From: Thermodesulfobacteriota bacterium
GTDB taxonomy: Bacteria; Desulfobacterota; WTBG01; JAGOGO01
DNA length: 32,000 nt
Reading direction: 5' to 3'
Assembly: GCA_026625185.1 (NCBI GenBank)
Contig: CP113000.1
Coordinates: 1,245,622 to 1,277,621 of the forward strand
Below, piece by piece: positions 3,908 to 27,909 of this stretch. Below the pieces are notes generated by a model. That model was not told the DNA's origin, ran no database searches, and was given only the letters and a program-made list of their open reading frames with translations. The stretch's first letter is position 1. Each line of letters begins with the position of its first letter. The position numbers and the translations under genes were made by a program.

Positions 3908-3914
3908 GGCAATA

Positions 3915-5534: not shown

Positions 5535-5538
5535 CTTC

Positions 5539-6252: not shown

Positions 6253-6256
6253 TGAC

Positions 6257-7195: not shown

Positions 7196-7381
7196 AGATT
7201 TTTCTGAGCGAAATTTTTCCTAAAATTCTGACCGCTATGGTTTGGTATTTGAAGACAAGCAAAGTTTTTAAAAGTTCGCACGATGGCTGAAAATGTTTTT
7301 AAGCTTAAAAGCTTAAATAATTCTAAAAGGTCTTATTTTAAAAAATAAAAAAAAATTGTCAAGACAATATGTTTTCCGGGA

Positions 7382-7410
7382 TAGACAGAAACCGGTTAAC
7401 GTGATAATAT
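7382..7410 (+). promoter_or_regulatory. candidate sigma70-type promoter for the aroB'-gap-pgk-tpiA operon
   Basis: TAGACA (7382-7387), a 17-nt spacer, then TAATAT (7405-7410) preceded by TGA (extended -10 like). It lies in a 350-bp AT-rich divergent intergenic region, about 130 nt upstream of the GTG start. Confidence 0.35.
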
Positions 7411-7546
7411 GATTTATTTTAAAGAAACTGATATTATAACTGGTTGCATCAAAACAGAAAATACGATATTTTTTATATTTGTTTTTCAGTCAAGCAGGAG
7501 AAAGGCGACTACTTTTGTAAGAGCTTTAAATGTAGGAGAAAATCTA

Positions 7547-9600
<2,054 letters not shown>

Positions 9601-9621
9601 TGGGGTTTAGGAGGGATTATA

Positions 9622-10821
9622 ATGGCCATAAAGTATATAAAATATATTGACAAAATAAACTTGAAGGGTAAAAGGGTTCTGATTCGAGTGGACTTGAATG
9701 TGCCCCTCGATAAAAACAAGAATATTACCGATGGTAATCGGATTCAGAGCGTCTTACCCACGATTAACTACTCCATAAAACAAGATGCTAAAATCATCCT
9801 CATGTCTCATTTAGGTCGTCCCAAGGGCAAGCCAGATACTGAATTTAGCCTTTTACCGGTGGCCAAATACCTTTGTGAGGTCTTGCAGAAAAAAGTCATC
9901 CTGGCGCCGGATTGTATTGGTCAGGAGGTGGAAAAGCTTGTTTCTGAGATGCAGCCACGCGATATCCTCCTCTTAGAAAACTTAAGATTCCACCCGGAAG
10001 AGGAAAAAAACGACCGGGAGTTTGGCCGCAAACTGGCAAACCTTGCCGATGTTTATATTAATGACGCTTTTGGCACTGCCCACCGTGCCCATGCCTCAAA
10101 TGTAGCAGTGGTCGAATTTTTCAAGGAGTTTGGGGGTGGGTTTCTGATGAAAAACGAGATCGAATATTTTCGAAAAGCAATGGTTGAACCTGCGCGTCCC
10201 CTGGTTGCTATCATGGGGGGGGCAAAGGTATCTGAAAAACTTGATGCCTTGGAAAACTTGATCCAGAAAGTGGATAAAATTTTCATCGGTGGGGGGATGG
10301 CTTATACCTTTCTTAAGGCCCTGGGATATGACGTAGGAAAATCTCTGGTTGAAGGGGATTTGATTGAAACCGCAAAAATGATTATGGCAAAAGCGAAAGA
10401 ACGAAAGGTAGCACTCCTTCTTCCGGTTGATTGTGTTGCCGCCGATCAGCTTGATTCCCGCGCGTCTACAAAAATCACCTCGATTCAGGAGATCCCTCCG
10501 GGATGGATGGGTCTGGATATCGGCCCGGCAACGCGAGTACTTTTTGCCGAATCGCTTGCAGAGGCCAAGACCATTGTCTGGAATGGTCCGATGGGGGTTT
10601 TTGAGATGGAACCGTTCAGCAAGGGAACGTTCGCAATGGTGGAGGCTCTCGCGGAATCATCCGCCCTCACGATTGTGGGTGGTGGTGATACTGATGTGGC
10701 GGTGCACAAATTGAATGCAGCGGACAAGATTTCATATATTTCTACGGGCGGGGGGGCTTTTATCGAGATACTGAAAGGCAAACCTCTTCCATCGATCTCG
10801 GTCTTGGAAAGAACGGGCTGA
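9622..10821 (+). CDS. pgk: phosphoglycerate kinase
   Basis: RVDLNVP, MSHLGRPKG, NDAFGTAHRAHAS, GGGDT motifs. RBS AGGAGG lies upstream. Confidence 0.97.
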   Translation: MAIKYIKYIDKINLKGKRVLIRVDLNVPLDKNKNITDGNRIQSVLPTINYSIKQDAKIILMSHLGRPKGKPDTEFSLLPVAKYLCEVLQKKVILAPDCIGQEVEKLVSEMQPRDILLLENLRFHPEEEKNDREFGRKLANLADVYINDAFGTAHRAHASNVAVVEFFKEFGGGFLMKNEIEYFRKAMVEPARPLVAIMGGAKVSEKLDALENLIQKVDKIFIGGGMAYTFLKALGYDVGKSLVEGDLIETAKMIMAKAKERKVALLLPVDCVAADQLDSRASTKITSIQEIPPGWMGLDIGPATRVLFAESLAEAKTIVWNGPMGVFEMEPFSKGTFAMVEALAESSALTIVGGGDTDVAVHKLNAADKISYISTGGGAFIEILKGKPLPSISVLERTG

Positions 10822-10935
10822 AACCAAAACCAGGCGGTACAAGGGCAGAAGCCAACATTCAGAGAAGATGTTTTTACCCCGTTAGAAACCCGGTTAAATA
10901 TCAAATACCTAAAAGGGAGAAGAAGCGGGGGTTAA

Positions 10936-11712
10936 ATGACGAAAGGAAAACAAAGCATGAACCGAGTCTCTTTGATTGCCGGGAACTGGAAAATGTACAA
11001 AACCGTTCCTGAGGCGGTAGCAACCGCTGCTCAACTTAAAGAAGCAGTAAAAGACATCTCCGGACGAGAGATTGTGATTGCCCCCCCGTTCATTTCTCTC
11101 CATCCGGTGTCCCAGGTTATTAAAGGCTCAAACATTAATCTTTGTTCTCAAGATGTGTTCTGGGAAGAGGAAGGCGCTTTTACCGGCCAAATTTCTCCGG
11201 GCATGCTTCTCAGCGCCGGGTGCACGTATACCCTTATCGGTCACTCGGAGCGAAGGCAGTATTTTGGCGAGACCAATGAGACGGTGAACAAGAAGACTAA
11301 AAAAAGCATCGATCAAGGCCTGAAGGTTATCGTTTGCATTGGAGAGGCCCTGGAAGAGCGTGAAGCCGGGAAAACTTTTTCCGTTCTGGAAATTCAAATT
11401 TCCGAAGGGCTAAAGGGATTAACTCCTGTTCATATGGACAGTGTAGTCATCGCTTATGAACCGGTCTGGGCGATTGGTACCGGTAAAACAGCAACGGCTG
11501 CGCAAGCAGAACAAGCTCACCAGTTTATAAGGGGTAAGCTTAAAGAACAATTTGATACCGGCGTAGCTGAAAAAATCCGCATCCTTTACGGCGGAAGCGT
11601 TAAGCCGGATAATATTGACCAGTTGATGGCGGAGAAAAATATTGACGGTGTTTTGGTGGGGGGAGCTTCGCTTAAGGTGGACTCTTTTTCCCGGATTGTG
11701 AAATTCACCTAA
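10936..11712 (+). CDS. tpiA: triose-phosphate isomerase
   Basis: IAGNWKMY, IGHSERR, AYEPVWAIGTG, YGGSV motifs. An alternative start at ATG 10957 (MNRVSLIAGNWKM) gives the more typical N-terminus. Confidence 0.95.
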   Translation: MTKGKQSMNRVSLIAGNWKMYKTVPEAVATAAQLKEAVKDISGREIVIAPPFISLHPVSQVIKGSNINLCSQDVFWEEEGAFTGQISPGMLLSAGCTYTLIGHSERRQYFGETNETVNKKTKKSIDQGLKVIVCIGEALEEREAGKTFSVLEIQISEGLKGLTPVHMDSVVIAYEPVWAIGTGKTATAAQAEQAHQFIRGKLKEQFDTGVAEKIRILYGGSVKPDNIDQLMAEKNIDGVLVGGASLKVDSFSRIVKFT

Positions 11713-11851
11713 GATATATATTATTTCAATGTGTTATCGGTTACCGGGAATGGACATTGAGTAAATAAAAAATTCTTGATAAAATTTTTAAAAAACAATA
11801 TTATCCCGAACTTGAAAACCTGACATTTGAAGATAAAATGGAGAAATAATC

Positions 11852-12214
11852 ATGAGTACTGTTCTTACTATCATTCATATAACCGTTTGCATTGCTTTAA
11901 TTTGCATCGTGCTTCTCCAAAGCGGTAAAGGTGCAAGCCTGGGGGCTGCCTTTGGGGGAGCAACTCAGACTGTCTTTGGGGCTTCCGGCGGAGCGGGTTT
12001 TTTTGAAAAGCTCACTACCGCCATAGCCGTTATTTTTATGGTTACTTCCGTTCTCCTGACCTATATCTCGGCAAAAAGAGGCGGAGAGACGATTATGAAA
12101 CCAAAGGCCGCGCAAGAAGAAAAAGCGGTCCCCAAAATTCCCCCGGCTCCAGGCACAGGAGCCGGGCAAAAAGCACCAAGCTCTATGCCGGCAACTCCTG
12201 CTCCTCAAAAATAA
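11852..12214 (+). CDS. secG: preprotein translocase subunit SecG
   Basis: LLQSGKGASLGAAFGG...FGASG motif between two TM helices. The conserved tpiA-secG synteny is present. It has a Pro/Ala-rich C-terminal tail. Confidence 0.9.
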   Translation: MSTVLTIIHITVCIALICIVLLQSGKGASLGAAFGGATQTVFGASGGAGFFEKLTTAIAVIFMVTSVLLTYISAKRGGETIMKPKAAQEEKAVPKIPPAPGTGAGQKAPSSMPATPAPQK

Positions 12215-12231
12215 GCAGGGTACCTTATAAT

Positions 12232-12314
<83 letters not shown>

Positions 12315-12371
12315 CATTCCTTCCTTTGAATTTCAATGTGTTACAACTCTTAAGGTGGTAAAAATCCTTTG

Positions 12372-12753
12372 TCAATCCTTTGTCAGGCCGTGCATAAGCA
12401 TTGAGTCCCGGAGGTCTTCGGGATCTCCAATAATATACCTTTCCAAAGCTTTGTTGGTTGAATGTCTGGTTGCTTCTCTTGCTAGTTCAGCATCGAGAGT
12501 ATTTTTAAGGTCGGTTGCAGTTGAGTGCTTAGTCCCTGGATAGAGAGACACCCCTTCAATTTCTTCTTAACTTCAACCCCCTTTATCTTTTGGTAGCATT
12601 CTTTAAACCCACTTTTCATGGCGTTAAGCTTATCCTTCCTATATTCTTCAAGAGAAGGGGTTGCTCCTTTGTTTTGCCTTTCATCACTCCCTTAAACTGC
12701 TTGATTTCTTGCGGTAAGAGACCTTGTTTTGTTACTAAAAAATATTTTTTCAT
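12372..12753 (-). pseudogene. tyrosine recombinase (phage-integrase family) remnant, C-terminal catalytic part only, disrupted
   Basis: Minus-strand translation gives ...LLLKNIGRISLTP*KSGFKECYQKIKGVEVKKKLKG, then a frameshift, then VSLYPGTKHSTATDLKNTLDAELAREATRHSTNKALERYIIGD. This follows the H-x-x-R...H...Y catalytic-tail pattern (KHSTAT, TRHST, ERY). It has an in-frame stop and a frameshift and lacks the N-terminal two-thirds. It sits 59 nt from the tRNA-Leu 3' end. Confidence 0.6.
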
Positions 12754-12989
12754 ACCCAAATTTAAGCGGTGTAACTAATGCTCTCAACCAAAAAATAGGG
12801 TGTTTTTTTGTTTAAAATACGTATTTCACCTTATTTTTATTTTATGAATAAAGGCTTATTTTTAATTTAATTGGTGACTATACCCTGATTAATGGCCGTA
12901 TGGTGGAGAAGTGAGGGGATCCGGCCAGCTCTTCTATTTTGGAAAAGCCTCAAGATAATTTCGAGAGTCCATAGGACTACTCCTTCTGG

Positions 12990-13027
12990 ATATGGCCGGA
13001 TTACTTATTGTCCGGCCATATTTTTTC
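12990..13027 (+). terminator. strong rho-independent terminator with no annotated gene upstream
   Basis: Perfect 11-bp stem ATATGGCCGGA (12990-13000) / TCCGGCCATAT (13011-13021), a 10-nt loop, then a TTTTTT run. Confidence 0.6.
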
Positions 13028-13212
13028 CCATTATTTCCATGACACAATCTCCTTTCTGCAAAAGACAAAAGCCCGGTCAGAATCACCCCACGCGAAACCT
13101 AACCAGGCTTTTAATCTTCCGCCGAAGCGGAAAAACGTTATATTTTTTGAGTACCTGGGGTTTTCATTTAAATGATCAATTTTAAAAAAAATCTTTTTTA
13201 CCGCCTTTCATC

Positions 13213-13695
13213 ATGGGTAAACTCGAAAAAAAAAAGCATTTAAAAAGCGGGCTCCGGGTAGTTTCGCTCCTTGAGGCCTCCAAAGGAATGCTTGTCTTGC
13301 TTACCGGCTTTGGGTTGCTGGCATTAATTCACAAGGACCTTCACCTTGCTGCCGAACAGCTGGTCCGGCACCTTCACTTAAATCCAGCTAATCATTATCC
13401 CCGGATTTTTATTGATCTTGCCAATCACCTGACCTCAGGAGAAATTTGGGAAATGGCCTTTGCAGCTTTTATCTACTCCTCGGTTCGCTTCGTTGAAGCT
13501 TTCGGCCTATGGCTGGGCCAGCAGTGGGCTAAATGGTTCGGTTTTCTTTCTGCGGGTTTGTATATTCCTATCGAACTATTTGAATTGACACGTGGGGTAA
13601 CTTGGCCTACGTTAACTGTAATTATCGTCAATGCAGCGATTGTTGGGTATCTTGCTTATGCTTTATATCAATCAAGGCGAAAAACAACGATATAA
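13213..13695 (+). CDS. DUF2127-like small membrane protein
   Basis: 160 aa with about 4 TM segments. The N-terminal LRVVSLLEASKGMLVLLTGFGLLAL and the C-terminal helix ending in a basic tail resemble DUF2127 proteins as I recall them. The family call is tentative. Confidence 0.55.
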   Translation: MGKLEKKKHLKSGLRVVSLLEASKGMLVLLTGFGLLALIHKDLHLAAEQLVRHLHLNPANHYPRIFIDLANHLTSGEIWEMAFAAFIYSSVRFVEAFGLWLGQQWAKWFGFLSAGLYIPIELFELTRGVTWPTLTVIIVNAAIVGYLAYALYQSRRKTTI

Positions 13696-13725
13696 TTACT
13701 CAAGACCAAAGCAGAAATAGAAAAC

Positions 13726-13748
13726 CCCTCCCGATTTCTCGGGAAGGG
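13726..13748 (+). terminator. terminator-like GC hairpin after the DUF2127 gene (no clear U-tract)
   Basis: CCCTCCCGA-TTTC-TCGGGA(A)GGG, 30 nt after the stop codon. The downstream sequence is not T-rich, so the function is uncertain. Confidence 0.3.
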
Positions 13749-14058
13749 TTGCCTTGAGGATGAGGGGAAAAATGAGGAGGTTGAGAAGGGGTTTCTTCTC
13801 TTTTCTCGTTTGTTATATTTTTTATAAAATTTTTACTTGCTGTCAATAGGAGGATCACTTCATTTTGATCGGGAAAATTCCCAGGGGGTAGGGATTTTTC
13901 CTAACGTAATAAAAACACCAGCAAAGGATGGGGCCCGTTACGGTGCCAGCCTATTGCCTCTGACCCCCGGTATTTAATAAACTGTTTTTTTAAAATTAAG
14001 AAATTCGAAAAATTAACTTACGAAAATTAGTTCACCGTGTTACTTCTAAGGATCGTTA

Positions 14059-14241
14059 CTATTCTTGAAGAGTAAACCGATGGTACCACCCCTCCCTTCT
14101 CCAAAAACTTAACCTGGGAAATGCTCCGTAGGGATAATGCATTCTTAAAAAAACCTCAAACGATCGTTCTTGTTCTAAATTAGAAAAAAGATTGCCTTGT
14201 GGCTCGGATTTATTAGACTCCATTGCTTCTTTTTCTGTCAT
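14059..14241 (-). CDS. hypothetical small protein (60 aa)
   Basis: AGGAG lies 7 nt upstream of ATG 14241 (MTEKEAMESNKSEPQG...). I recognise no family. The longer track start at 14274 lacks an RBS. Confidence 0.3.
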   Translation of the reverse strand: MTEKEAMESNKSEPQGNLFSNLEQERSFEVFLRMHYPYGAFPRLSFWRREGWYHRFTLQE

Positions 14242-14415
14242 CGCATAACTCCTAACCTGCCTTGTTGGCAACATTTTTTAAAGGGAAATCGATTTTTCCT
14301 AATTCTTTTGTGTATCAATTTACCTACTGAATTTTAAATCATCTATAGGGTGTTTTGTGTATTTTATGTTCAAAATTCCATTATTTTAAAATTCTACAAA
14401 AGTAAGCAAAATTGT

Positions 14416-14444
14416 TTGCATTAAATTTAAAACCTCAGTATGAT
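14416..14444 (+). promoter_or_regulatory. candidate sigma70 promoter upstream of the alpha/beta hydrolase
   Basis: TTGCAT (14416-14421), a 17-nt spacer, then TATGAT (14439-14444), about 110 nt upstream of ATG 14555. Confidence 0.3.
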
Positions 14445-14554
14445 TTCTAAGATAAAATTTTAATTGAATTTTAGGTTGTTATGGTTTAATTTGGGGGAAA
14501 TGAGATCGCCGAGCTAATATCGAGAAATCAAAACCGTAACGGGAGCGAAAGACT

Positions 14555-15277
14555 ATGATTCAGTTCGTCTTGGTGCATGGTGCGTGGCACGGGGGCTGGT
14601 GCTGGCGTCGTGTAGCCGATGTTCTCAGGGCTCGCGGGCACCGGGTTTTCGCGCCCAGCCTCACGGGAGTGGGGGATCGCGCGCATCTCTTCTCCAAAGA
14701 AATTTCAATGCAGACTCATGTGGACGACATCCTTTCCGTGGTTGAAACTGAGGAATTGAGGGACTTCGTTCTGGTTGGACATAGCTATGGAGGCTTCGTG
14801 ATCTCCGGAGTCGCTGACACACTCCGAGAGCGCGTGTCTCACTATGTTTACTTGGATGCTAGTGTTCCACCCGAAATGTCACCAGGCGCATCCTTCAGCT
14901 GGGCCGACTTTAATCCTCCCGAGGCACGTGAAGAACGATTGAAGTCGGTTCAAGAACAGGGTAAGGGTGCGGCACTCCCTCCACCTCCGCCCAGTGCATT
15001 CGCTGTGACCAACCCTGCGGACGTCGCCTGGCTGCAGCGGCAATTGCGGCCTATGCCGGTTGGGACCTATATCGGAGCCTTTACCTTCAAGAGCTCCGGG
15101 AGCAATGGATTGAAGCGCACCTACATTGCTTCAACCAAACCCCCCTATGCTTTGCTCGCCTCTACCCGTAACCGTATAAAGGGTGACCATACCTGGTCGT
15201 TCACGACAATCGAGGCAGGGCACGACTCAATGGTTACCGCCCCTGACGAGCTGGCTTCTTTGTTAATGGTGGCCTGA
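14555..15277 (+). CDS. alpha/beta hydrolase, SABP2 / methylesterase / hydroxynitrile-lyase-like subfamily
   Basis: N-terminal FVLVHGAWHGGWCW motif, nucleophile elbow GHSYGG, C-terminal GHDSM (catalytic His context). It is much more GC-rich than its flanks. Confidence 0.85.
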   Translation: MIQFVLVHGAWHGGWCWRRVADVLRARGHRVFAPSLTGVGDRAHLFSKEISMQTHVDDILSVVETEELRDFVLVGHSYGGFVISGVADTLRERVSHYVYLDASVPPEMSPGASFSWADFNPPEAREERLKSVQEQGKGAALPPPPPSAFAVTNPADVAWLQRQLRPMPVGTYIGAFTFKSSGSNGLKRTYIASTKPPYALLASTRNRIKGDHTWSFTTIEAGHDSMVTAPDELASLLMVA

Positions 15278-15454
15278 AACCCATCCTGTTGAGTCCGCCA
15301 TAGACCGGTATCAAACTTTTGCATGCAGCGTACCGGCCAACAGCGTCCCTTCGCGGTGCTGCTTGGACAGCCGCTGATTCAAGACCTTATACAGAAAAAA
15401 AAAGTGAATGCACATAAAATTAAAAAATAATTCTTAAAAATTTAGGAGGTAAAT

Positions 15455-16672
15455 ATGCTTGATTGCACTATCACCGTGGAATCCGGCGTTACCTGGATTA
15501 ATTTAAAAGGTCGTATTGACAGTATGACCTCACCGGAGATACAGCGGCAGATTAATGACCTCATTTTAGGGGGAGAAAGGCACTTAGTGGCTAACCTTGA
15601 GGAGATCAACTATATCAGCAGCGCAGGTTTACGCGTTTTTCTGGGAGCGCAGAAACAGCTCAAAAAGGTGGGAGGGGAGATTATTTTTTATAAAGTCTCG
15701 AGTTCAATATTTGACGTGTTTAAACTCGGGGCTTTTGATCAGATATTCCGTTTCGCGTCAACCAGAGAAGAAATTACCGGCGCACTTCATGCCGATAAAA
15801 CCTCTTTTCCTATTCGCTCAAAAGAGGTTGAGAAAATAGTATTTAACTATCTTGAAAAAAAAGCTGATCCTGGTTTCCTGAAGGTGGTGGGGTCTCAGGA
15901 AAATCTTGCTTGGGCAAAGTATATTGAGAAAGATGTGGTTACTATCAAATCAGAAGAACTCCAGTTCGGAACCGGTCTGGCTACTCTGGGTGATTGCTAC
16001 GGGGAATACAAGAATTTATTCGGCGAAGCAATGGTCATCAACCGAAACTTCTTTTTTTATCCGGCAGTTAAACGTCCGGCAGTTGATTTCATGCTTGCTG
16101 CCAACCAAGAATCCAGTCTTGAATACCGGTTTCTGCACGGCTTTGGATTCACTGGGTCCTATAAGTACGTTGTTTTATTTGAGAGTACGGAGGGCTTGGT
16201 AGAGCTGGAACGCCTGGTGAATGCTTTTTTTTCGATTTCCCAGGCGAATCTTTTGGGTTTTGTGATTCTCGGGGAAAGCAAAGGTCTCTGGGGAATGCAT
16301 TTAAAAAATAGCCCTATTTTTGAGAATCAACCTAAAAACGGCAAAGAGATTTTTGACCCGATAAACTTTGCTGACTGGGTAAACTTTCCTGTGGAGGCGG
16401 GAGATATCAACCGGATTATTGCTGCAACCGGGATTGCGATCAAGGAAGTGAGCAGGGAGCGCGGTGAAGTACAAAGCCTTTTGTCCAAGGGAGCCTGTTT
16501 TCATGTTCATGGGGCAGTATTTTCTCAGGAGCCGCTCAGTAAGAAAATAGAGCAGTTTGAAAACGAGCTTACCCGGGTTCTGACCGAACTTGAGGTTTAT
16601 AAGGTGCAGCATATACTCGGCAAGACCAGATTCAGCAGCGGAATGGTGGGGCTCGTTGAGCTTAGTTCATGA
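15455..16672 (+). CDS. STAS-domain (anti-sigma-factor-antagonist-like) protein fused to an uncharacterised domain of about 290 aa
   Basis: Residues 1 to about 110 are SpoIIAA/RsbV-like (INLKGRIDS...LEEINYISSAGLRVFLGAQKQLKKVGGEIIFYKVSSSIFDVFKLGAFDQIF). I recognise no motif in the rest. A strong RBS AGGAGG lies 6 nt upstream. It is the first gene of the ABC operon. Confidence 0.8.
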   Translation: MLDCTITVESGVTWINLKGRIDSMTSPEIQRQINDLILGGERHLVANLEEINYISSAGLRVFLGAQKQLKKVGGEIIFYKVSSSIFDVFKLGAFDQIFRFASTREEITGALHADKTSFPIRSKEVEKIVFNYLEKKADPGFLKVVGSQENLAWAKYIEKDVVTIKSEELQFGTGLATLGDCYGEYKNLFGEAMVINRNFFFYPAVKRPAVDFMLAANQESSLEYRFLHGFGFTGSYKYVVLFESTEGLVELERLVNAFFSISQANLLGFVILGESKGLWGMHLKNSPIFENQPKNGKEIFDPINFADWVNFPVEAGDINRIIAATGIAIKEVSRERGEVQSLLSKGACFHVHGAVFSQEPLSKKIEQFENELTRVLTELEVYKVQHILGKTRFSSGMVGLVELSS

Positions 16673-16703: not shown

Positions 16704-19700
16704 ATGGAACTCTGGGTTGGTGCATTAAGTCTCGGTTTGTTATACGCCTTCATGACCATGGGGGTTTTCATCACCTTTCGCATTCATAATTTCCCTGACA
16801 TTACCGTGGACGGAAGCTTTACCTCAGGGGCGGCAATAATGGCGTTACTTATTGTCACCGGATTTAACCCATTTCTGGCCCTGGGGGCTGCCTTTATCAT
16901 CGGAGCAGTCGCGGGTTGCGCTACCGCTTTGATCAATACCCGTTTAAATGTCAATGGCCTCCTGGCTGGTATTTTGGTCATGACCGGTCTTTATTCTATT
17001 AACCTGCACATCATGGGCCGGTCAAATATACCTCTTCTCAACCAGACAACGGTATTTACTTATCTCTCTGGGCTAAATCCAGGACTACAGGGAGAGATCT
17101 GGACTGGTATCGTCCTCAGTTTGGTTATGGTCCTTTTCTGGCTTGTTGTTTCTTTGTTTTTTAAAACTGATTTTGGGATTGCCATGCGGATTACCGGTAA
17201 TAATCCCACCATGGCGGCGGCAAATGGTGTTAATGTCGGCAGAATGACTATCTTTGGGGTAGCTTTGGCAAACGGTCTGGTTGGTGTTTCCGGCGGCTTG
17301 GTTGCCCAATATCAGGGATTTGCCGACATTGGAATGGGAATTGGAACGGTAGTTATCGGGCTTGCGGCAGTAATCATCGGCGAGTCCATCTTGAGGTCCC
17401 ACTCCATGTACGCAAAAGTGTTAAGCGTGCTCATTGGATCGGTGATTTTCCGGCTAATGATTGCCATTGCGCTTTTTGTGGGCATGAACCCTATTGACCT
17501 TAAACTTCTCACCGCAGGTTTTGTCCTTATTACCCTTATTATTTCTAAAACTGTTGCGGGCCGGGAAAAGAGGAGGGGGGAACTTTTCGGAAAGGTAGCC
17601 GGTTTTTTTCAGGGTAAACGAGTTGCTTACGGTTTTACTGCCATCATCATTATTATTGCGGTTGCATGGTTTGGGTATAAAAATTTTTCCCAAAGATTAA
17701 TGACACCACAAAAAATTAATAAAATCAAGGTGGTGCAGCTTACTGATAATGGACTTTTAAATATAACCCGGGACAGTTTCGTTAAAGAAATGGAAAAAAT
17801 CGGTTATCAGGATGGGCAGAATTGCACCATTAGCCTGGAAAATGCTCATGGTGATCTGCCCACCGTCAACTCCATCATTGATAAATTTCTTCAGGAGAAG
17901 GCGGACATTATCGTCACCATTTCCACCGGATGTACCCAGGCAGCAATCAATAAGATCAAGGACCGGCCAATAGTTTTTGCTACGGTTGCCAATCCGTTTA
18001 TTATTGGTGCCGGAAAATCAGAAACTGACCATGTAGCTAACGTTACTGGTGTGTACGGCTCGGTTCCCATGGACAAAACTATGGAGGTGGTCAGAAAAAT
18101 CCTGCCGGGAAAGCTCGCCATTGGAGCCATCTGGGATTCAAGCCAGGCAAATTCAGTCTTCAATGCAGAAAATCTTAAAAAAGCAGCTCAAGCTTGTGAT
18201 GGGGTGAGTTTTGCGGGAACAACCATTACCAGCTCAGCGGAAGTATATGAGGGCGCCGTATCTTTGGTACAAAAGGGGATTGGCGCTTTTGTTTTGCCGC
18301 CCGACAACATTGTTTATTCAGCTTTTGAGTCGGTGATAAAAGCCGCCAGAACCAAAAACATCCCCGTCTTCACCAGTGATGTAGAAAGGCTTGCTGATGG
18401 CGCTCTTGGTGTGCTGGGATATGATTATGCTTTAAGCGGTATTCAGGCTGCCCATCTGGTTGACCGGGTGCTAAAAGGGGAAAAACCACGGGATATCCCT
18501 TTTGAGCGGTATAGAAAGCTTACTTTTGGGCTTAACCTGGAGGTGGCAAAAACAATTGGTATATCCATATCACCTGAAGTTATTGCTCAAGCTACCATAG
18601 TTCTCGGAGGGAGAGAGACCAAAAAGCTTAAACCTAAAATAGGCCTTGTTCAGTTTGCCTTTGAACCTAATGTGGAGCTCTGCAAGCAAGGAATTCTTAA
18701 AGCCCTGGCCGAAAATGATTACCGAGATAAGGATAACATCGAAATCATCTACAAAAATGCTCAGGCTGACTTCTCTCTGATTAATTCCATTATTCAGGAT
18801 TTCCTAAGAAGGAAGGTTGATATCATTGTCCCCCTTTCAACCCCGTGTGTGCAGTCGGCAGTCCAGTTTGCTGCCGGGAAAAAAGAAACTAAAGTTGTTT
18901 TTACCTACATATTTGATCCTTACCGGATAGGAGCGGCAAAAACTCCGACCGACCATGTTCCCACTATAACGGGCGTGGCCTGCTTTCCGCCGATAGAGGG
19001 GATGCTGAATTTAATAAAAGAGATTTTCCCGGACCGGAAAAAGGTGGGCATTGTCTGGAATAGCTCGGAGGCAAACTCGGAAGCAGTGCTCCTTAAGATA
19101 CGTACCCAGGCGGCTAAGACAGGTCTTGAGGTTATCGAGGCAACCGTGACCAGCCCGGCGGAGGTTCTGGAGGCAGCACGGTCTTTGGTGAATAAAAAGG
19201 CTCAGGTTTTTTTAAATGGCGGAGACAATACCCTTAATGTGAGCTTTGACAGTTTTGTAAAGGTTGCGGACGAGAACAAAATCCCCGTTTTTTCAGTAGA
19301 TTCAGAATTTATTGAAAAAGGTTCTTTTGCGGTTCTGGGGCCTGATTATTTTCAAACCGGTTATGAAGGAGGAAACTATTTGGCCAAGGTATTGGGTGGT
19401 GAAGATATCGCAAACCTCCCTATCGGTCAGACCAAAAAAACCCTTTTTATGATCAACTTGGATATTGCCCGCAAATATGGGTTTGAGGTAGATAATGCTA
19501 TCGTGAAAAGGGCGCAGAAAGTCATTGACAGCAGCGCTAAGGTTATTGCCGCAGGCCCGCCGGTGCGGAAAAAGAGACTGGCGCTTTTTCTTTTTAGTGA
19601 ATACATTTCAATGCGTGAAACTGCCCAAGGGGTTACGGAAGAGCTTGAGCGAAGCGGCATTTTGCGGCAGCATAATATAACTATGGACACAAAAAATTCT

Positions 19701-20462
19701 CAGAACGATTTTTATTTGGCCCAGTCAATTGCTCAGGATATTGTGCGGCAAAAATATGACTATATCATCACGCTTTCTACTCCTGCACTTCAGGTAATGG
19801 CAAATGCCAATAAAAAGATTCCCCATATCTTTGGCGCGGTGACTGATCCTTACCGCATGGGGGTGGCAAAAAGCAGCACTGACCACCTTCCGAACGTGAC
19901 CGGGGTGGCGACTCTTCAACCGGTGGAGACAACCATCCGGGTTATGCGGGAACTTTTTCCTCAGGCAAAAAAAGTAGGAATTATCTGGAACCCCGCGGAA
20001 GCCTGCTCCGAAGCCTGTACCTACAAAGTCCGGGACGCGGTTAAAAAATATAGCTTTGCTCTACAGGAAATAAATGTTGACAGCACCAGTGAGGTGCTTG
20101 ATGCGTTGAAGTCCCTCTTAAACCGGAGAATTGATCTGTTTCTGACCTCCGGTGACAATACGGTCATTATGGCGCTTGAGTCGGTTGCAAAATTGCTGAA
20201 GGAGCATAAAATTCCTTATTTTACCAACGTTCCCTCGGATGTTGACCGCGGTGCGTTTGTTTCCATCGGTGCAGACTATAATGAGGTGGGTAAGGAAACA
20301 GCCCGCATGGCAGAAAGGGTAATAAGCGGAGAAAACCCCCAGGGCATTCCCATTAAAAATTATGTTCCCGAAAAAATGGCAGTTAATCTCTCCCTGGCGG
20401 GAGAGTACGGGATCAAGATTCCGGAGCCATTGCTTAAAAAAGCCGCCTATATCAAGAGGTAG
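16704..20462 (+). CDS. ABC transporter permease (COG4120-type) fused through an extra TM helix to three tandem PF04392/COG2984-type substrate-binding domains
   Basis: The N-terminal 300 aa or so are polytopic (FPDITVDGSF, LAGILVMTGLYSINLHIMG). A linker TM follows (VAYGFTAIIIIIAVAWFGY). Then come three units of about 300 aa sharing DIIVxxST, DPxxxGxxKxxTDHxxNVTGV, KVGIIWNxxEANS and IPVF landmarks. Confidence 0.85.
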   Translation: MELWVGALSLGLLYAFMTMGVFITFRIHNFPDITVDGSFTSGAAIMALLIVTGFNPFLALGAAFIIGAVAGCATALINTRLNVNGLLAGILVMTGLYSINLHIMGRSNIPLLNQTTVFTYLSGLNPGLQGEIWTGIVLSLVMVLFWLVVSLFFKTDFGIAMRITGNNPTMAAANGVNVGRMTIFGVALANGLVGVSGGLVAQYQGFADIGMGIGTVVIGLAAVIIGESILRSHSMYAKVLSVLIGSVIFRLMIAIALFVGMNPIDLKLLTAGFVLITLIISKTVAGREKRRGELFGKVAGFFQGKRVAYGFTAIIIIIAVAWFGYKNFSQRLMTPQKINKIKVVQLTDNGLLNITRDSFVKEMEKIGYQDGQNCTISLENAHGDLPTVNSIIDKFLQEKADIIVTISTGCTQAAINKIKDRPIVFATVANPFIIGAGKSETDHVANVTGVYGSVPMDKTMEVVRKILPGKLAIGAIWDSSQANSVFNAENLKKAAQACDGVSFAGTTITSSAEVYEGAVSLVQKGIGAFVLPPDNIVYSAFESVIKAARTKNIPVFTSDVERLADGALGVLGYDYALSGIQAAHLVDRVLKGEKPRDIPFERYRKLTFGLNLEVAKTIGISISPEVIAQATIVLGGRETKKLKPKIGLVQFAFEPNVELCKQGILKALAENDYRDKDNIEIIYKNAQADFSLINSIIQDFLRRKVDIIVPLSTPCVQSAVQFAAGKKETKVVFTYIFDPYRIGAAKTPTDHVPTITGVACFPPIEGMLNLIKEIFPDRKKVGIVWNSSEANSEAVLLKIRTQAAKTGLEVIEATVTSPAEVLEAARSLVNKKAQVFLNGGDNTLNVSFDSFVKVADENKIPVFSVDSEFIEKGSFAVLGPDYFQTGYEGGNYLAKVLGGEDIANLPIGQTKKTLFMINLDIARKYGFEVDNAIVKRAQKVIDSSAKVIAAGPPVRKKRLALFLFSEYISMRETAQGVTEELERSGILRQHNITMDTKNSQNDFYLAQSIAQDIVRQKYDYIITLSTPALQVMANANKKIPHIFGAVTDPYRMGVAKSSTDHLPNVTGVATLQPVETTIRVMRELFPQAKKVGIIWNPAEACSEACTYKVRDAVKKYSFALQEINVDSTSEVLDALKSLLNRRIDLFLTSGDNTVIMALESVAKLLKEHKIPYFTNVPSDVDRGAFVSIGADYNEVGKETARMAERVISGENPQGIPIKNYVPEKMAVNLSLAGEYGIKIPEPLLKKAAYIKR

Positions 20463-20464
20463 CG

Positions 20465-21277
20465 ATGATAAAAATCATTGATGTTCACAAAAGGTTTAAC
20501 CCCGGCACTGCCAATGAGGTTTATGCTCTCCGGGGCATCAACCTGCATATCGAAGAAGGTGAGTTTGTTACCGTTATCGGAACCAATGGCTCAGGCAAAT
20601 CTACCCTGCTCAATGCACTCGCCGGCGCCTTCCTGCCTGATTCCGGCTCCATAGATATTGACGGTTTGGAGGTAACGGATAAAAAAGATTTTCAAAGGGC
20701 AAAGTATATTGCCCGGGTTTTTCAAAATCCTTTTATGGGAACTGCTCCCGAGATGACCATTGCGGAAAATCTTCACATGGCCTCCTTGAGATGCAAAAGA
20801 AGCTTTCCAAAAAGAGGATTAAACGCTGAACGTCTTAAGACTTACAGAGCGGAAGTTGCTCAGCTGGAGATGCAGCTGGAGGACCGTCTTCGTAATTTTA
20901 TCGGCACCCTCTCCGGCGGTCAGCGGCAGGCATTGACCCTGCTAATGGCGGTGATCACTGAGCCCAAGGTGCTCCTTCTGGATGAGCACACGGCAGCTTT
21001 GGATCCTAAGTCGGCAGCCCAGGTTATAAAGTTGACCAAAAAATTTATTGAAGGGACTAAGCTTACCACCCTTATGGTTACCCACAGCATGCAGCAAGCT
21101 CTCGACCTCGGTACCCGCACCATTATGATGAACAAAGGACAGATTATTGACGATATCCCTCAGAAAGAAAAACAGCGGATTACAGTTAATGACCTGTTGG
21201 ACAAATTCGCCGAGCTTCGCAAAGCCGAACAGTTAACCGACGAAATGATAGAGGAGTTAAGGCAAGGATATGTTTAA
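20465..21277 (+). CDS. ABC transporter ATP-binding protein (COG1101-type partner of the COG4120 permease)
   Basis: Walker A GTNGSGKST, signature LSGGQRQ, Walker B LLLDEHTAALD, H-loop VTHSM. The start is 2 nt after the permease stop. Confidence 0.92.
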   Translation: MIKIIDVHKRFNPGTANEVYALRGINLHIEEGEFVTVIGTNGSGKSTLLNALAGAFLPDSGSIDIDGLEVTDKKDFQRAKYIARVFQNPFMGTAPEMTIAENLHMASLRCKRSFPKRGLNAERLKTYRAEVAQLEMQLEDRLRNFIGTLSGGQRQALTLLMAVITEPKVLLLDEHTAALDPKSAAQVIKLTKKFIEGTKLTTLMVTHSMQQALDLGTRTIMMNKGQIIDDIPQKEKQRITVNDLLDKFAELRKAEQLTDEMIEELRQGYV

Positions 21278-21295: not shown

Positions 21296-21706
21296 CTATT
21301 TTTTTATTTTCATGCAGAGTTTCAGAATATTCTTTCCTTCCTCGTGCCGGTAATCCAATTCATCCACCATCTTTCGGATCAGAAAAATCCCTAAGCCTCC
21401 GATTCTCCGCTCAAATAAATCACCGGATAAATTTGGACTATTTTCAGTTAAAGGATTGAAAGGATGGCCCCAGTCCTGGATGACAAAACAAAGTTTATCC
21501 TTATTCAGCCGGGTGCACTTTACTTCCACATCACCTTCTTGCGTGGGATAAGCATAATTAATAATATTGGTGAGAACCTCTTCCAGAACCAATTCTATCC
21601 TTGAAACCATTTCCTGGGTTATATGCCAGTCTTTTATTGTCTGAAGGACAAAAGAGCGAAAGGTTTCCAATGATTCCAATTTTGCCGGTAAACGTAAGTT
21701 ATCCAT
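21296..21706 (-). CDS. RsbW/SpoIIAB-like anti-sigma regulatory factor (HATPase_c serine kinase)
   Basis: 136 aa with N-box EEVLTNIINYAY, a DWGHPFNP segment and a GGLGIFLIRKMVDE G2-box. It is the last gene of the partner-switching operon. Confidence 0.85.
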   Translation of the reverse strand: MDNLRLPAKLESLETFRSFVLQTIKDWHITQEMVSRIELVLEEVLTNIINYAYPTQEGDVEVKCTRLNKDKLCFVIQDWGHPFNPLTENSPNLSGDLFERRIGGLGIFLIRKMVDELDYRHEEGKNILKLCMKIKK

Positions 21707-21752: not shown

Positions 21753-23720
21753 TTAAGCATATTGAAAAAATCCTGGATAAGGAGAATCCTCTTTTATTCC
21801 TTTAAAGCGCAAAGCTAAAACCGTAATATCGTCCGCCTGGCTGACTTCTTTAGAAAAGCTTTTAACCGCATTAACCACATTATTTACGAGCTCTTCGGGA
21901 GAATTGTCGGGGTAGGTTCGGGTGGTCTCCAGTAGTCGTTGTTCGGAGTAGAGCTCTTTGTTTTCGTTTAGGGCTTCCGTTACTCCATCGGTATAAACCA
22001 GCAGCAAATCTCCTGAGCGAAGCTCAACTTTTTTCGTATCGTATTGGGATTCCTCAAAGACTCCCAGGAAGAATCCTTTCGGAAGTTCCAGCCATTCCGG
22101 TTCTTGACCGGCCCGAACAAGCAGCGGAGGATTATGGCCTGCATTGGAGTAAAGAAGTTCTCCGGATTTGAAATTCAAAATACCGCAAAAAACGGTGACG
22201 AACATATTTGATTCATTGTCTTGGCAGAGTTCCAAATTTACTCTTTTGAGGATGTCGGAAGGCTTAAGCTGAGGTTCAGCGGTTCCTTTCAGAAGAGTCT
22301 TTGTTACCGCCATAAAGAGAGCTGCCGGTATGCCTTTATCCGAGACATCACCCACAACAAAAAAAAGATGCTCTTCATCGAGGAGAAAGAAATCGTAAAG
22401 ATCACCGCCGATTTCTTTAGCGGGTTCAAGGGAAGCAAAAATTTCAAATTCAACCTTATCCGGAAACGGCGGAAAGTGCTTTGGAAGAAAACTCATCTGA
22501 ATGGTGCGGGCAATCTTGAGCTCGCTCTCAATCCGCTCCTTGGCTGCGGTGGTGGCGGCCAGGTTGGCAATGTATTCCTTAAGGGCAACTTTCATCTCCT
22601 TAAAAGATCGGGTTAGTTTTCCGATTTCATCATTTGCCCGCACCTCCGGTAGCTCAATATCCAGATTCCCCTTGACGATTTCCGAGGTTGATCGGGCAAG
22701 AGAACCGAGCGGCTTGGTAATAGTCCGGGAGAAGAAGGCAATGACGATACAGAGGAAGGTGAATCCAACCACGCCGATGAGAAGGACTTGTTTGCTTAAC
22801 CGGCTCACATCAGCAAATAGTTCTTCCTCCGGGAAGATCACTCCGAGGGACCAGCCGTTGGAAGGCAAGGGGGCATAATACATCCAGGATTTTTTTCCGG
22901 AGACAAAGTCTTGGAGAGGCACGAACCCCGGTTCGCCGGTGATCATTTTTCTCCCAACTTGGCGCAGGGTGGAGTCTTTTCTCGCTTCGGCAATACTGAA
23001 GATGCTTTCCTTCATGATCAATTGCTTTTCGGGGTGCGTGACCATGACCCCGTTTTGGGAGATCAAAAAAGCGTATCCGGTCTTATAGATTTTTACCGAA
23101 GATACAATATCCTTTAACCACATCAGGGAAATATCAGCAGTGACAACTCCCCGGAATTTATTTTTGCCGTCTATTTTTTTATAAAAGGGCACGGAATAAG
23201 TGGACATAATGATATTGCCGGCGCCTTCATCATAAAAGGGCTCGCTCCATACCGGGGAGTCAATTTCCTTGGGGATCTGAAACCAGTCGAGGTAAAAATA
23301 CCGGTAGGAGTCACTTCCCAAAAATGTTAAGATGATCTTTTCATTATTACGGTAATAATAAGGAGCAAAGTATAATAAAGTCGGATTAAAGGCGTACGGT
23401 TCAAAGGCAAAGGTTGAACCAAATATCTCCGGATTATTTGCAACCGCGCTTTGTACTAATTTCAAAAGATCTTGGCGTTGGTAGGGGTATTTTTCAATGA
23501 TGGAGGCTTGATTAAGCGGCACCTCTTCAACCGACCTGAGGACCGTCTCAATTTTATAAACGGTAGATAGGGTGAGGTTGCGGGCGTTTTCTTCAATGTT
23601 TTTTAGTAAAGTTTTTTTTGAATAATGGTAGTTATAAACGAAAGCCGCAACAAAGATGATGGTGGTGCTGGTTAAGATAAAGATAATGAGTTTAAAAGCG
23701 AGCCCTAAATTTTTAATCAT
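21753..23720 (-). CDS. membrane sensor phosphatase: TM, Cache-like periplasmic domain, TM, HAMP, PP2C (SpoIIE/RsbU family)
   Basis: Two TM helices flank about 280 aa containing YKTGYAFLISQNGVMVTHPE (Cache-like). HAMP segment is TKPLGSLARSTSEIVKGNLDIELP...IGKLTRSFKEM. PP2C motifs are ARTIQMSFLP, GGDLYDFF, VVGDVSDKGIPAALFMA, YTDGVTEA, DDITVLALRF. Confidence 0.88.
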   Translation of the reverse strand: MIKNLGLAFKLIIFILTSTTIIFVAAFVYNYHYSKKTLLKNIEENARNLTLSTVYKIETVLRSVEEVPLNQASIIEKYPYQRQDLLKLVQSAVANNPEIFGSTFAFEPYAFNPTLLYFAPYYYRNNEKIILTFLGSDSYRYFYLDWFQIPKEIDSPVWSEPFYDEGAGNIIMSTYSVPFYKKIDGKNKFRGVVTADISLMWLKDIVSSVKIYKTGYAFLISQNGVMVTHPEKQLIMKESIFSIAEARKDSTLRQVGRKMITGEPGFVPLQDFVSGKKSWMYYAPLPSNGWSLGVIFPEEELFADVSRLSKQVLLIGVVGFTFLCIVIAFFSRTITKPLGSLARSTSEIVKGNLDIELPEVRANDEIGKLTRSFKEMKVALKEYIANLAATTAAKERIESELKIARTIQMSFLPKHFPPFPDKVEFEIFASLEPAKEIGGDLYDFFLLDEEHLFFVVGDVSDKGIPAALFMAVTKTLLKGTAEPQLKPSDILKRVNLELCQDNESNMFVTVFCGILNFKSGELLYSNAGHNPPLLVRAGQEPEWLELPKGFFLGVFEESQYDTKKVELRSGDLLLVYTDGVTEALNENKELYSEQRLLETTRTYPDNSPEELVNNVVNAVKSFSKEVSQADDITVLALRFKGIKEDSPYPGFFQYA

Positions 23721-24696
23721 GGGATACGCAATCTATAAAAAAATCCGAGAAACTCGGGACAGCAGTGATTAAGCGATTTACCTTAAGCTCCTGAACAACG
23801 CGATTATAATCGCCGGCTTGAAGAGTTCCCAAAGGGACAGTATTACCGGACGGATTAATGATGTCTTTCATACGTTCCAGCATCCATTTCTGGTGAACCC
23901 GGTTCGTAGCGATATTGCCGTCCACTACATACTTCATAACAATATCGAGGGCCGGTTCGGGGTTATCGAAGGCGTACTCCCATCCTTCGAGGGATGCTTT
24001 CACAAAATCACGGCACAAGGCGGGATCATGGTCAAAGGTCTTTTTTAAACAGTAAATACCGTCTTCGGGAAAGTTTACGCTATATTCAGAAAGGAAAAAG
24101 GTCGTTAATTCAGTCGGATTTATACCGGAATTGATAATGGTATGGTACTCATTGTACCACATGGCGGACGCTACATCTACCCCGTTGCGTAAAAATAGGT
24201 TCAGGGTTGCGGACTGGGGAATAATGGTAACGTGAAGGTTGTGCTTTTTGAAAAATGCCTTGGGCTGGACCTGAAATTCACTTCCCCAGAGACCCACTTT
24301 CCTCCCGTTGATATCCCGGGGGGAGTATATGCCGCTTGACTTTTTCGCCACCAACATGAGGGATGATCGTTGGACAATTTGACCGATATTAACTATGGGG
24401 AGCCCCTGGGAGCGCTTTTGGATTCCGGTGGAGAGGAACATGGTTCCAAAATCCGCGCGTTTCTCCTTTAATAGCGCCGAAGGTGGGTAATCGGGGCCGC
24501 CACGTAAAATTTTTACCTCCAATCCGTGTTTCCGGTAAAATCCTTTCTCCTGGGCGACAAAGTAACCGGCAAACTGGGACTGAGGAACCCATTGGGGTAT
24601 AAAAGTCGTTTTTTTTAAACCCTTTTCGTTTGCCTGAGCCGCTATAGTTATCAATAAAAGCAAGGCAAAAAGAAAGAATATTTTAAATTTTAGCAC
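23713..24696 (-). CDS. periplasmic substrate-binding protein, NMT1/THI5-like (NitT/TauT-type SBP)
   Basis: Signal peptide MLKFKIFFLFALLLLITIAAQA and a QWVPQSQFAGYFVAQEKGFYRKHGLEVKI motif. Its stop overlaps the phosphatase start by 8 nt (ATGATTAA). Confidence 0.8.
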   Translation of the reverse strand: MLKFKIFFLFALLLLITIAAQANEKGLKKTTFIPQWVPQSQFAGYFVAQEKGFYRKHGLEVKILRGGPDYPPSALLKEKRADFGTMFLSTGIQKRSQGLPIVNIGQIVQRSSLMLVAKKSSGIYSPRDINGRKVGLWGSEFQVQPKAFFKKHNLHVTIIPQSATLNLFLRNGVDVASAMWYNEYHTIINSGINPTELTTFFLSEYSVNFPEDGIYCLKKTFDHDPALCRDFVKASLEGWEYAFDNPEPALDIVMKYVVDGNIATNRVHQKWMLERMKDIINPSGNTVPLGTLQAGDYNRVVQELKVNRLITAVPSFSDFFIDCVSHD

Positions 24697-24728: not shown

Positions 24729-25061
24729 TTAAATCTGTGACCGAGCAGATTCCACGGATTCAAAGATGGGGATAATAGAACGGAATCCGGAAATTTCGAA
24801 AACCTCCTTTACCATACCTTTAAGTCCGGCAATCAGAAGCTTTCCATCTTTTTCTTTAAGTTTTTTGGTTATCGTGAGGATGCTGCGAAGGCCGGAGCTG
24901 CTGATATAATCAAGCGCAGCAAAGTCAAGTATTAAAGCGTTATTTCCTTCAGCAATTAATGCGGCCATTTCTTTTTCAAACTCCGGTGAGGAAACAGCAT
25001 CCATCCTCCCTTTTAATGAAACCACTGCTGCCTCTTGTTCCCGTTTTTTTTCTATCTCCAT
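24729..25061 (-). CDS. STAS-domain anti-sigma-factor antagonist (RsbV/SpoIIAA-like)
   Basis: 110 aa: VSLKGRMDAVSSPEFEKEM...LDFAALDYISSSGLRSILTITKKLKEKDGKLLIAGLKGMVKEVFEISGF. The serine at the phospho-acceptor position is retained. Confidence 0.88.
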   Translation of the reverse strand: MEIEKKREQEAAVVSLKGRMDAVSSPEFEKEMAALIAEGNNALILDFAALDYISSSGLRSILTITKKLKEKDGKLLIAGLKGMVKEVFEISGFRSIIPIFESVESARSQI

Positions 25062-27556: not shown

Positions 27557-27909
27557 TCGCTTTTCTTAGCATAAATATGAGGACAAAACAAGTCATTATT
27601 ATATCCTCCTAAATTTCCAACTGCCTAAATTTCTTTATTTCTCTGCTCATTTTTAAGTACGGTTAATTCAAAAATAACATTCTCCACCAAGGGAGAGGAA
27701 CGATAAAAAAGTGTTATTAATTAAAAATTTACCTTTTTTCTAAGGCTTTTGTTCACTGGTAGTTTTTTTAAAGCTTATTTTTTCGTAAACCATTTTAGCG
27801 CTCCTGCGTCTTATATTTGAGAAAAGCAAAATAAATTAACCCATAAGAGATGCGTATCTGTACCTATTAAAAACTAATCCTCTAATAATTAAAAAAGGGT
27901 GTGATCATC

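Follow-up and report, generated by a model that had tools for sequence, protein, structure and literature searches.

A STAS protein with a second domain of predicted acetolactate decarboxylase-like fold is encoded beside a TrpXYZ-type ABC importer in more than 10 phyla

Among the described systems closest to the one reported here is MlaB, a single-domain STAS protein that has no known kinase or phosphatase and forms part of the MCE-type lipid transporter MlaFEDB. Its binding partner there is the ATPase MlaF, which depends on MlaB for stability and activity (PMC7367683). Thr52 of MlaB occupies the classic phospho-site, within the helical surface that faces MlaF, and the phosphomimetic change T52E weakens binding; according to its authors, phospho-regulation of MlaB stays hypothetical (PMC7367683). 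Here we describe a gene, STAS-X, in a 32,000-nucleotide (nt) stretch of the genome of a Thermodesulfobacteriota bacterium (contig CP113000.1, positions 1,245,622 to 1,277,621; 'the window' refers to this whole stretch). Like MlaB, STAS-X is a cytoplasmic STAS protein encoded inside an operon for an ATP-binding cassette (ABC) transporter. In contrast to MlaB, it has an extra domain of 286 amino acids (aa), which we call X, it is linked to kinase and phosphatase genes, and its partner is a binding-protein-dependent importer, with a BPD_transp_2 permease and PF04392 domains in place of MlaFED with its MlaE and the MCE protein MlaD. Because STAS-X is almost always encoded beside the same transporter in > 10 phyla, it is probably a built-in regulator, or a cargo processor, of that transporter. 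A preliminary description of the window had offered two readings, an MlaB-like accessory subunit and the output protein of a neighbouring partner switch. Both are partly supported by the genomic context, and they are not mutually exclusive.

Other known systems each share part of this arrangement. TrpXYZ importers resemble the STAS-X operon in having a BPD_transp_2 permease, PF04392 binding domains and one ATPase; the STAS-X operon differs in that one to four binding domains are fused to the permease and in that the STAS-X gene precedes the transporter genes. With respect to the fusion, the permease can be likened to GlnPQ and OpuA, importers to which binding domains are likewise fused. For PF04392 proteins the ligands known are L-Trp, L-Tyr and L-Phe (PMC10443332). 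Precedents for regulation from the cytoplasmic side are the trans-inhibition domains of MetN (C2) and ModC, and EIIA-Glc acting on MalK (all named in PMC7367683). In each of these a cytoplasmic ligand-binding module or regulator touches the ATPase and tunes import post-translationally; they are C-terminal ATPase domains or proteins of the phosphotransferase system, whereas STAS-X is a separate polypeptide that combines a STAS switch with a domain like acetolactate decarboxylase (ALDC). SpoIIAA/RsbV modules, finally, share with STAS-X the family score, the phospho-acceptor Ser, an RsbW-like kinase, a SpoIIE-type PP2C phosphatase and a second small STAS protein encoded nearby. STAS-X differs from them in its large fused domain and in having a transporter, rather than a transcription factor, as its conserved genetic partner. 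Our literature search found no characterised TrpXYZ system with a STAS-X-like partner, and no description of the STAS-X fusion or of an ABC importer as the output of a partner switch.

The STAS-X gene and the features within it are as follows.

15446..15451, + strand: Shine-Dalgarno sequence AGGAGG of STAS-X, read from the sequence, with the ATG (15455) 3 nt downstream
15455..16672, + strand: STAS-X gene, an open reading frame (ORF) of 405 aa, first gene of the ABC operon
15455..15790, + strand: SpoIIAA/RsbV-type STAS domain, residues 1–112, assigned from Pfam, TIGR00377, PDB sequence match, Foldseek and the structural model
15620..15622, + strand: codon of Ser56, the predicted phospho-acceptor, from alignment to SpoIIAA Ser58
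15791..15811, + strand: flexible inter-domain linker, residues 113–119, of low confidence in the model
15812..16669, + strand: X domain, residues 120–405, of predicted ALDC/PTD012/PPC-like fold (AlphaFold2 model and Foldseek)
16025..16027, + strand: codon of Glu191 in the FGE motif, a residue that may correspond to the catalytic Glu of ALDC, kept in 216 of 218 relatives
16085..16087, + strand: codon of Asp211, near-invariant, kept in 217 of 218
16502..16510, + strand: His350-x-His352, candidate metal ligands on the strand formed by residues 349–356, kept in 216 and 215 of 218, respectively
16610..16612, + strand: codon of His386, candidate third metal ligand on the strand formed by residues 381–387, kept in 216 of 218

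STAS-X is a real, conserved gene. Its AGGAGG and the 31-nt gap between its stop codon and the next gene (start at 16704) are as first described. A protein identical to STAS-X is on record in a Thermodesulfobacteriota metagenome-assembled genome (MAG), and the best 120 of 427 matches at E ≤ 1e-3 are 49–100% identical, cover 60–100% of the query and are mostly full length. Those homologues that have been named carry only the labels 'STAS domain-containing protein' or 'anti-anti-sigma factor'. A chance or mis-annotated ORF at 15455..16672 is excluded by the hundreds of full-length homologues. Rfam models matched nothing in the whole window, which was scanned for T-box and riboswitch elements, and promoter and terminator scans of the window gave counts that were not above those in shuffled sequence.

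Directly downstream lie the two genes of the transporter, which the preliminary description had placed and named correctly.

16704..20462, + strand: ABC permease (BPD_transp_2) followed by an extra transmembrane helix and three tandem PF04392 domains, 1252 aa (Pfam)
20465..21277, + strand: ABC ATPase of 270 aa, the last 35 residues forming a conserved tail (Pfam ABC_tran)

The linkage of these genes to STAS-X was surveyed in 78 loci from species-representative genomes and 7 metagenomic or MAG loci (individual loci are given L numbers below), with the window proteins searched against the ORFs of each locus. The permease gene lay directly 3' of STAS-X in 63 of the 65 loci with enough flanking sequence, with a median gap of 3 nt (≤ 10 nt in 51 of 64), and the ATPase gene was downstream in 48 of 48. 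Linkage between STAS-X and the ABC genes was found in > 10 phyla. The linked lineages include Thermodesulfobacteriota, Omnitrophota, Calditrichota, KSB1 and Ignavibacteria, and further Bacteroidota, Cloacimonadota, Aminicenantes, Synergistia and Verrucomicrobiota. In Verrucomicrobia, which form a divergent branch, the binding-protein gene comes first, followed by STAS-X, the gene for an unfused permease, the ATPase gene, an RsbW::STAS fusion gene and the gene for a PP2C phosphatase that binds cyclic nucleotide monophosphates. This linkage pattern, a near-universal and translationally coupled adjacency, says that the primary functional partner of STAS-X is the transporter. The neighbourhood survey had been suggested in the preliminary description, together with the thought that homologues might never be linked to ABC or partner-switch genes; clearly, this is not so. 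The proposal of an MlaB-like accessory subunit gains from the adjacency to the permease gene, from the constant ATPase gene and from the embedded position in Verrucomicrobia. It does not hold as to type, since the STAS domain has the full SpoIIAA topology and the importer is of the TrpXYZ rather than the Mla kind.

The permease chain of the window matches PF04392 (ABC_sub_bind) with E = 1e-158 in three copies, which are 34–37% identical to one another, and its extra transmembrane segment (residues 307–325) follows a linker rich in K and R. It takes the three domains jointly to match the TrpX model of NCBIfam, and the substrate is therefore not assignable. Across the loci the permease usually carries one to four fused binding domains, four being present in the 1563-aa chain of L016. 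A homodimeric transporter with such a four-domain permease would show up to eight binding domains. In the ATPase, the tail (residues 236–270) has a mean column identity of 0.69 as against 0.73 for the core, calculated from 62 sequences. This conserved tail recalls the tail of MlaF that clasps MlaB, with the proviso that the comparators all come from STAS-X systems and that the likeness is not docking evidence.

STAS-X consists of a STAS domain, a flexible linker and the 286-aa C-terminal X domain. The claim that its N-terminal part is a complete SpoIIAA/RsbV-like STAS domain retaining the phospho-acceptor Ser was borne out. Residues 7–106 match Pfam STAS with E = 1e-15 and 57.8 bits (cutoff 22.6), and the score against the TIGR00377 anti-anti-sigma model is 67.6 bits, where the curated cutoff is 53.45. 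The best PDB sequence matches are SpoIIAA proteins (E = 2.4e-13), and a Foldseek search with the full-length model returned, for the STAS domain, 1th8_B with E = 5e-10 and a target-normalised template modelling score (TM-score) of 0.88. In profile comparisons STAS-X matches MlaB with E = 2e-3, as against 1e-16 to 6e-18 for SpoIIAA-type proteins. The AlphaFold2 model shows the topology β1-β2-α1-β3-α2-β4-α3-β5-α4, in which β5 is formed by residues 99–101 and α4 by residues 104–112.

In the alignment, Ser56 of the YISSAGL motif pairs with Ser58, the phospho-acceptor of Bacillus subtilis SpoIIAA. Ser55 and Ser56 are each kept in 217 of 218 STAS-X relatives, and by this alignment Ser56 is the predicted site of phosphorylation. 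Judged by model score, putative phospho-site and neighbouring enzymes, the STAS domain belongs with SpoIIAA/RsbV. The protein as a whole departs from the single-domain form of that family (110–120 aa, sigma-directed), being 405 aa long with a second domain. The model of full-length STAS-X, made with 45 homologues as input, has a mean predicted local distance difference test score (pLDDT) of 88.6 and a predicted TM-score (pTM) of 0.70, compared with a pTM of 0.90 for the C-terminal domain alone. In the linker, pLDDT falls below 50 at residues 114–116, and the block 111–120 averages 58.

The preliminary description held that the C-terminal region matches no family that can be named. At the level of sequence this stands: residues 115–405 found nothing in Pfam (E ≤ 10), NCBIfam or the PDB sequences, whether a single sequence or a profile was used (Pfam was searched with the single sequence and with 28 members, the PDB with phmmer and the profile). 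At the level of fold it does not. Modelled alone with AlphaFold2, X is compact and β-rich (pLDDT 91.7, pTM 0.90), and the Foldseek search that had been recommended gave 15 PDB matches with E < 1e-3, of which 14 are ALDC chains (E = 1.6e-6 to 8e-5, target-normalised TM-scores of 0.61–0.70). The fifteenth is human PTD012/C11orf54 (E = 3.6e-5), the PDB title of which names a zinc-containing fold. Below these in the list come PPC/DUF296 proteins and AF0104, and a search with the full-length model returned the same fold neighbours. In SCOP these families are placed in one group, 'AF0104/ALDC/Ptd012-like'. As modelled, X falls into one known structural superfamily and no other.

As modelled, X has a two-lobed β-rich fold in common with ALDC (PF03306) and PTD012, and its motifs are colinear with those of ALDC. 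It is about 50 residues longer, with a helix inserted between the strand bearing HxH and the third His; it has no sequence-level match to these proteins, no universal Arg in place of the catalytic one of ALDC, and is never free-standing. PF03306 gave no match to any of 28 X members at E ≤ 10. The idea that X is a true acetolactate decarboxylase was rejected by this failed sequence-model test, made with PF03306 and with hhalign. X has the fold of an enzyme family and no sequence membership in it, so that the alternative foreseen at the outset, a place in a well-characterised enzyme family, is not what was found. Rather than as an acetolactate decarboxylase, X should in our view be filed, on the evidence of its model, as a new sequence family that has the ALDC/PTD012 fold.

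An X-only HMMER scan of 1.84 billion representatives yielded 326 clusters. In practically all full-length hits X lies at about residues 120–405 of a protein of about 400 aa, and distant members likewise start with a STAS domain bearing an SSAG motif; X is thus essentially never free-standing and practically always fused to STAS. One X protein (P0234, 549 aa) has a duplicated STAS domain. In L062 (9971–11183), STAS (123 aa) and X (276 aa) are two adjoining ORFs; either the fusion is naturally split there or the assembly contains a frameshift.

Residue conservation was assessed in an alignment of 218 full-length representatives, 42 of which share < 32% identity with STAS-X of the window. Among polar residues, only S55, S56, E191, D211, H350, H352 and H386 are conserved in ≥ 98% of the representatives, and the conservation of the last five, all in X, holds down to 20% identity. 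In the model, H350 and H352 alternate along a single strand; H386 belongs to another one further along, past the inserted helix. An hhalign comparison placed FGTGLA..FGE191 of X opposite FGIGTF..DGE of ALDC (P = 0.024, not significant), and a local comparison placed FH350VH352G opposite YHLHF (P = 0.059, not significant). The ALDC partners of the FGxG..GE and HxH motifs are invariant positions in the ALDC alignment; in ALDC they are the catalytic Glu and two of the three His residues that bind zinc. The order along the chain is colinear with ALDC, with FGxG..GE early and HxH..H late. The set of one Glu, one Asp and three His is probably a functional, metal-binding site rather than part of the scaffold.

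Such a site raises the possibility that X is a metalloenzyme (a decarboxylase, hydrolase or isomerase, like ALDC or PTD012) which carries out the first metabolic step on the solute brought in, with STAS switching or localising X and the transporter itself unregulated. In line with this, the only structural neighbours are enzymes with metal sites of three His residues, conservation of five polar residues in > 98% is what catalytic centres typically show, the gene always shares its operon with the importer genes in a strict manner, and many hosts are syntrophic or aromatic-degrading Thermodesulfobacteriota, the ligands of PF04392 proteins being aromatic amino acids (PMC10443332). However, no other catabolic gene is conserved beside the trio, R374 (present in 175 of 218 relatives only) leaves X with no universal counterpart of the catalytic Arg of ALDC, X has no membership in an enzyme family at the sequence level, and the near-complete absence of X proteins that lack STAS would be left unexplained. 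We regard this as a possible but somewhat doubtful reading.

The same residues bear on a different proposal, that X is a non-catalytic scaffold which multimerises STAS as the trimeric PPC/DUF296 proteins do, with its conserved residues serving structure. PPC proteins, which are not known enzymes, are indeed among the structural neighbours, and an archaeal relative has lost the GE and HxH motifs yet retains X. Nevertheless, a scaffold would not be expected to keep three His, one Glu and one Asp almost without exception at 20% identity, and the best structural matches are two-lobed enzymes rather than single PPC domains; we think the proposal improbable. The archaeal relative is a 436-aa STAS-X-like protein encoded in a Methanospirillum MAG (L071, 10001–13241), in which GE is replaced by GN and HxH by NIN.

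Downstream of the ABC operon and convergent with it is an operon on the − strand that encodes the components of a partner switch; its kinase gene, too, was placed correctly in the preliminary description.

21296..21706, − strand: RsbW/SpoIIAB-type serine kinase (HATPase_c_2; Pfam E = 1e-26, full length)
21753..23720, − strand: membrane sensor phosphatase of dCache-HAMP-PP2C (SpoIIE) architecture (Pfam)
23713..24696, − strand: NMT1-family periplasmic binding protein with a signal peptide (Pfam NMT1, E = 8e-42)
24729..25061, − strand: single-domain STAS protein, 110 aa, with a DYISSSG motif (ORF; first gene of the partner-switch operon)

The dCache-HAMP-PP2C phosphatase recurs beside STAS-X operons. 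Its gene overlaps the NMT1 gene by 8 nt, and the NMT1 protein and a dCache sensor are paired in the window and in L001, L006, L010, L044 and L061–L066. The recurrence of this pair in several phyla suggests that the NMT1 protein delivers a ligand to the sensor phosphatase. Homologues of the small STAS protein are present in L001, L004, L008, L023, L031, L044 and L050. Overall, a PP2C or RsbW gene lies ≤ 9 kb from STAS-X in 15 of 41 well-flanked loci. No gene for a sigma factor or anti-sigma output was found in the 32-kb window.

The Bacteroidota loci L061 and L063–L066 (~5500–14800) have a different set of genes, in the order NMT1, dCache-HAMP-HisKA-HATPase, REC-PP2C, STAS-X, permease-SBD2 (SBD, substrate-binding domain) and ATPase, and the stop codon of REC-PP2C overlaps the start of STAS-X. 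Because no other STAS, small STAS or RsbW gene is present near STAS-X in these loci, STAS-X is the only candidate there for the PP2C substrate. In these loci the NMT1 and dCache-HAMP input is thus rewired through a two-component relay, from histidine kinase to receiver-PP2C (REC-PP2C).

Further variants of the signalling genes were noted. In Prosthecobacter (L073, 13066–13815; L085, 12798–13688) a fusion of RsbW-type kinase and STAS, about 250 aa long, follows right after the ATPase gene. A PP2C gene adjoins this fusion; in L073 its product also carries a cyclic-nucleotide-binding domain, and in L085 the match is to the PP2C domain alone. The gene directly upstream of STAS-X in L008 (8459–9973) encodes a protein of 504 aa that joins an HATPase_c_2 domain of RsbW type to a GNAT acetyltransferase domain.

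These neighbours could mean that STAS-X is purely a component of the partner switch, an antagonist or decoy substrate of the RsbW-type kinase or the terminal output protein of the switch, which makes no contact with the transporter and is adjacent to it for co-expression. Its STAS domain is canonically of SpoIIAA/RsbV type, its neighbours, in the window as in other phyla, include genes for a kinase, a phosphatase and another, small STAS protein, and in the archaeal locus the STAS-X-like gene is followed by a HAMP-PP2C gene with no adjoining ABC genes. On the other hand, the linkage to ABC genes (63 of 65, with 3-nt gaps) is far tighter than that to partner-switch genes (15 of 41), the Verrucomicrobia gene is embedded between transporter genes, and the conserved site of X would have no role; we therefore judge this reading decidedly unlikely. 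The original suggestion that STAS-X is the output of the neighbouring switch keeps the support of the kinase and phosphatase genes within 9 kb and of the REC-PP2C overlap in Bacteroidota, with the reservation that the main linkage, to the ABC genes, is the tighter one. In a further variant, unlikely as we see it, a partner-switch cascade has the importer as its output: once dephosphorylated by an extracellular sensor phosphatase that has a periplasmic binding protein of its own, STAS would gate the transporter within seconds, and the ALDC-like metal domain would convert the emerging cargo, coupling import to first-step catalysis. Were it true, nature would here provide the STAS protein, bound to an ABC system and regulated by phosphorylation, that has so far only been hypothesised in the MlaB literature.

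The reading that we favour is that a phospho-switchable STAS-X couples an external sensor phosphatase and an internal site to the importer, and we give this composite model a probability of about 50%. STAS-X would be a dedicated cytoplasmic subunit, or a close partner, of the TrpXYZ-type ABC importer. The RsbW-type kinase (21296..21706) would phosphorylate Ser56, and the sensor PP2C (21753..23720), probably together with the NMT1 binding protein, would dephosphorylate it on an external signal. Unphosphorylated STAS would then engage the transporter, most likely at the ATPase dimer as MlaB does on MlaF, and alter its activity. On the cytoplasmic side, the X domain would most likely use a bound metal ion to bind, or to convert, a small molecule of carboxylate type. 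Through this site transport would depend also on how much of the cargo, or of a related metabolite, is present inside the cell, in a feedback resembling trans-inhibition.

Several observations weigh against this composite model. Two loci, L041 and L068, and the archaeal L071 have no adjacent ABC genes, and a natural fusion of X or STAS-X to a transporter subunit, sought among the homologues, was not seen. About 60% of the well-flanked loci have no kinase or phosphatase gene within 9 kb, and phospho-control may therefore be non-universal or encoded elsewhere. The STAS domain of STAS-X has the full SpoIIAA topology and is not of the minimal type of MlaB, which is a STAS fold without β5 and α4 (PMC7367683). 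The likeness of X to ALDC is at the level of fold only, with TM-scores of 0.5–0.7, a root-mean-square deviation of 4.3–6.5 Å and 10–11% identity. When the X family profile was compared by hhalign with ALDC alignments of 32 and then 119 sequences, the probability was 2–4% (E = 0.011–0.024); as this is not significant, we do not claim ALDC membership or proven homology.

The surroundings of STAS-X in the two bacterial loci just mentioned can be described briefly. In L041 (9995–11212) STAS-X is an orphan between rplQ and ppx/hprK. In L068 (~9311–11242), a Chthoniobacter STAS-X gene of the divergent 'HNHG' subgroup has as its neighbours a divergently transcribed small STAS gene and a gene for a polytopic membrane protein.

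Elsewhere in the window, 2888–7195 on the − strand is another operon, of ABC-2 type, that is unrelated to STAS-X and encodes an ATPase, an ABC-2 membrane protein, and ABC_transp_aux/DUF7088 and DUF4340 proteins. At 27901–28299 there is a small secreted protein of 132 aa, with a signal peptide and a low-complexity body extremely rich in Tyr, Gly, Pro and Arg.

Taken singly, the STAS switch, a STAS protein bound to an ABC system, the fold of ALDC and the fusion of binding domains to importers are all known; what is new is their combination and its conservation in > 10 phyla. By sequence, X (residues 120–405) is a newly described family, a domain without a curated model. To our knowledge, post-translational control of bacterial ABC importers has been recognised in only a handful of systems. 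The STAS-X loci offer a genetically complete test case, in which a phosphorylatable STAS protein, a kinase, a ligand-sensing phosphatase and a transporter are encoded side by side, in wirings that differ but persist across many phyla. If the proposed mechanism holds, transporters would join the outputs of partner switches, and external sensing and internal metabolite status would be coupled directly to uptake.

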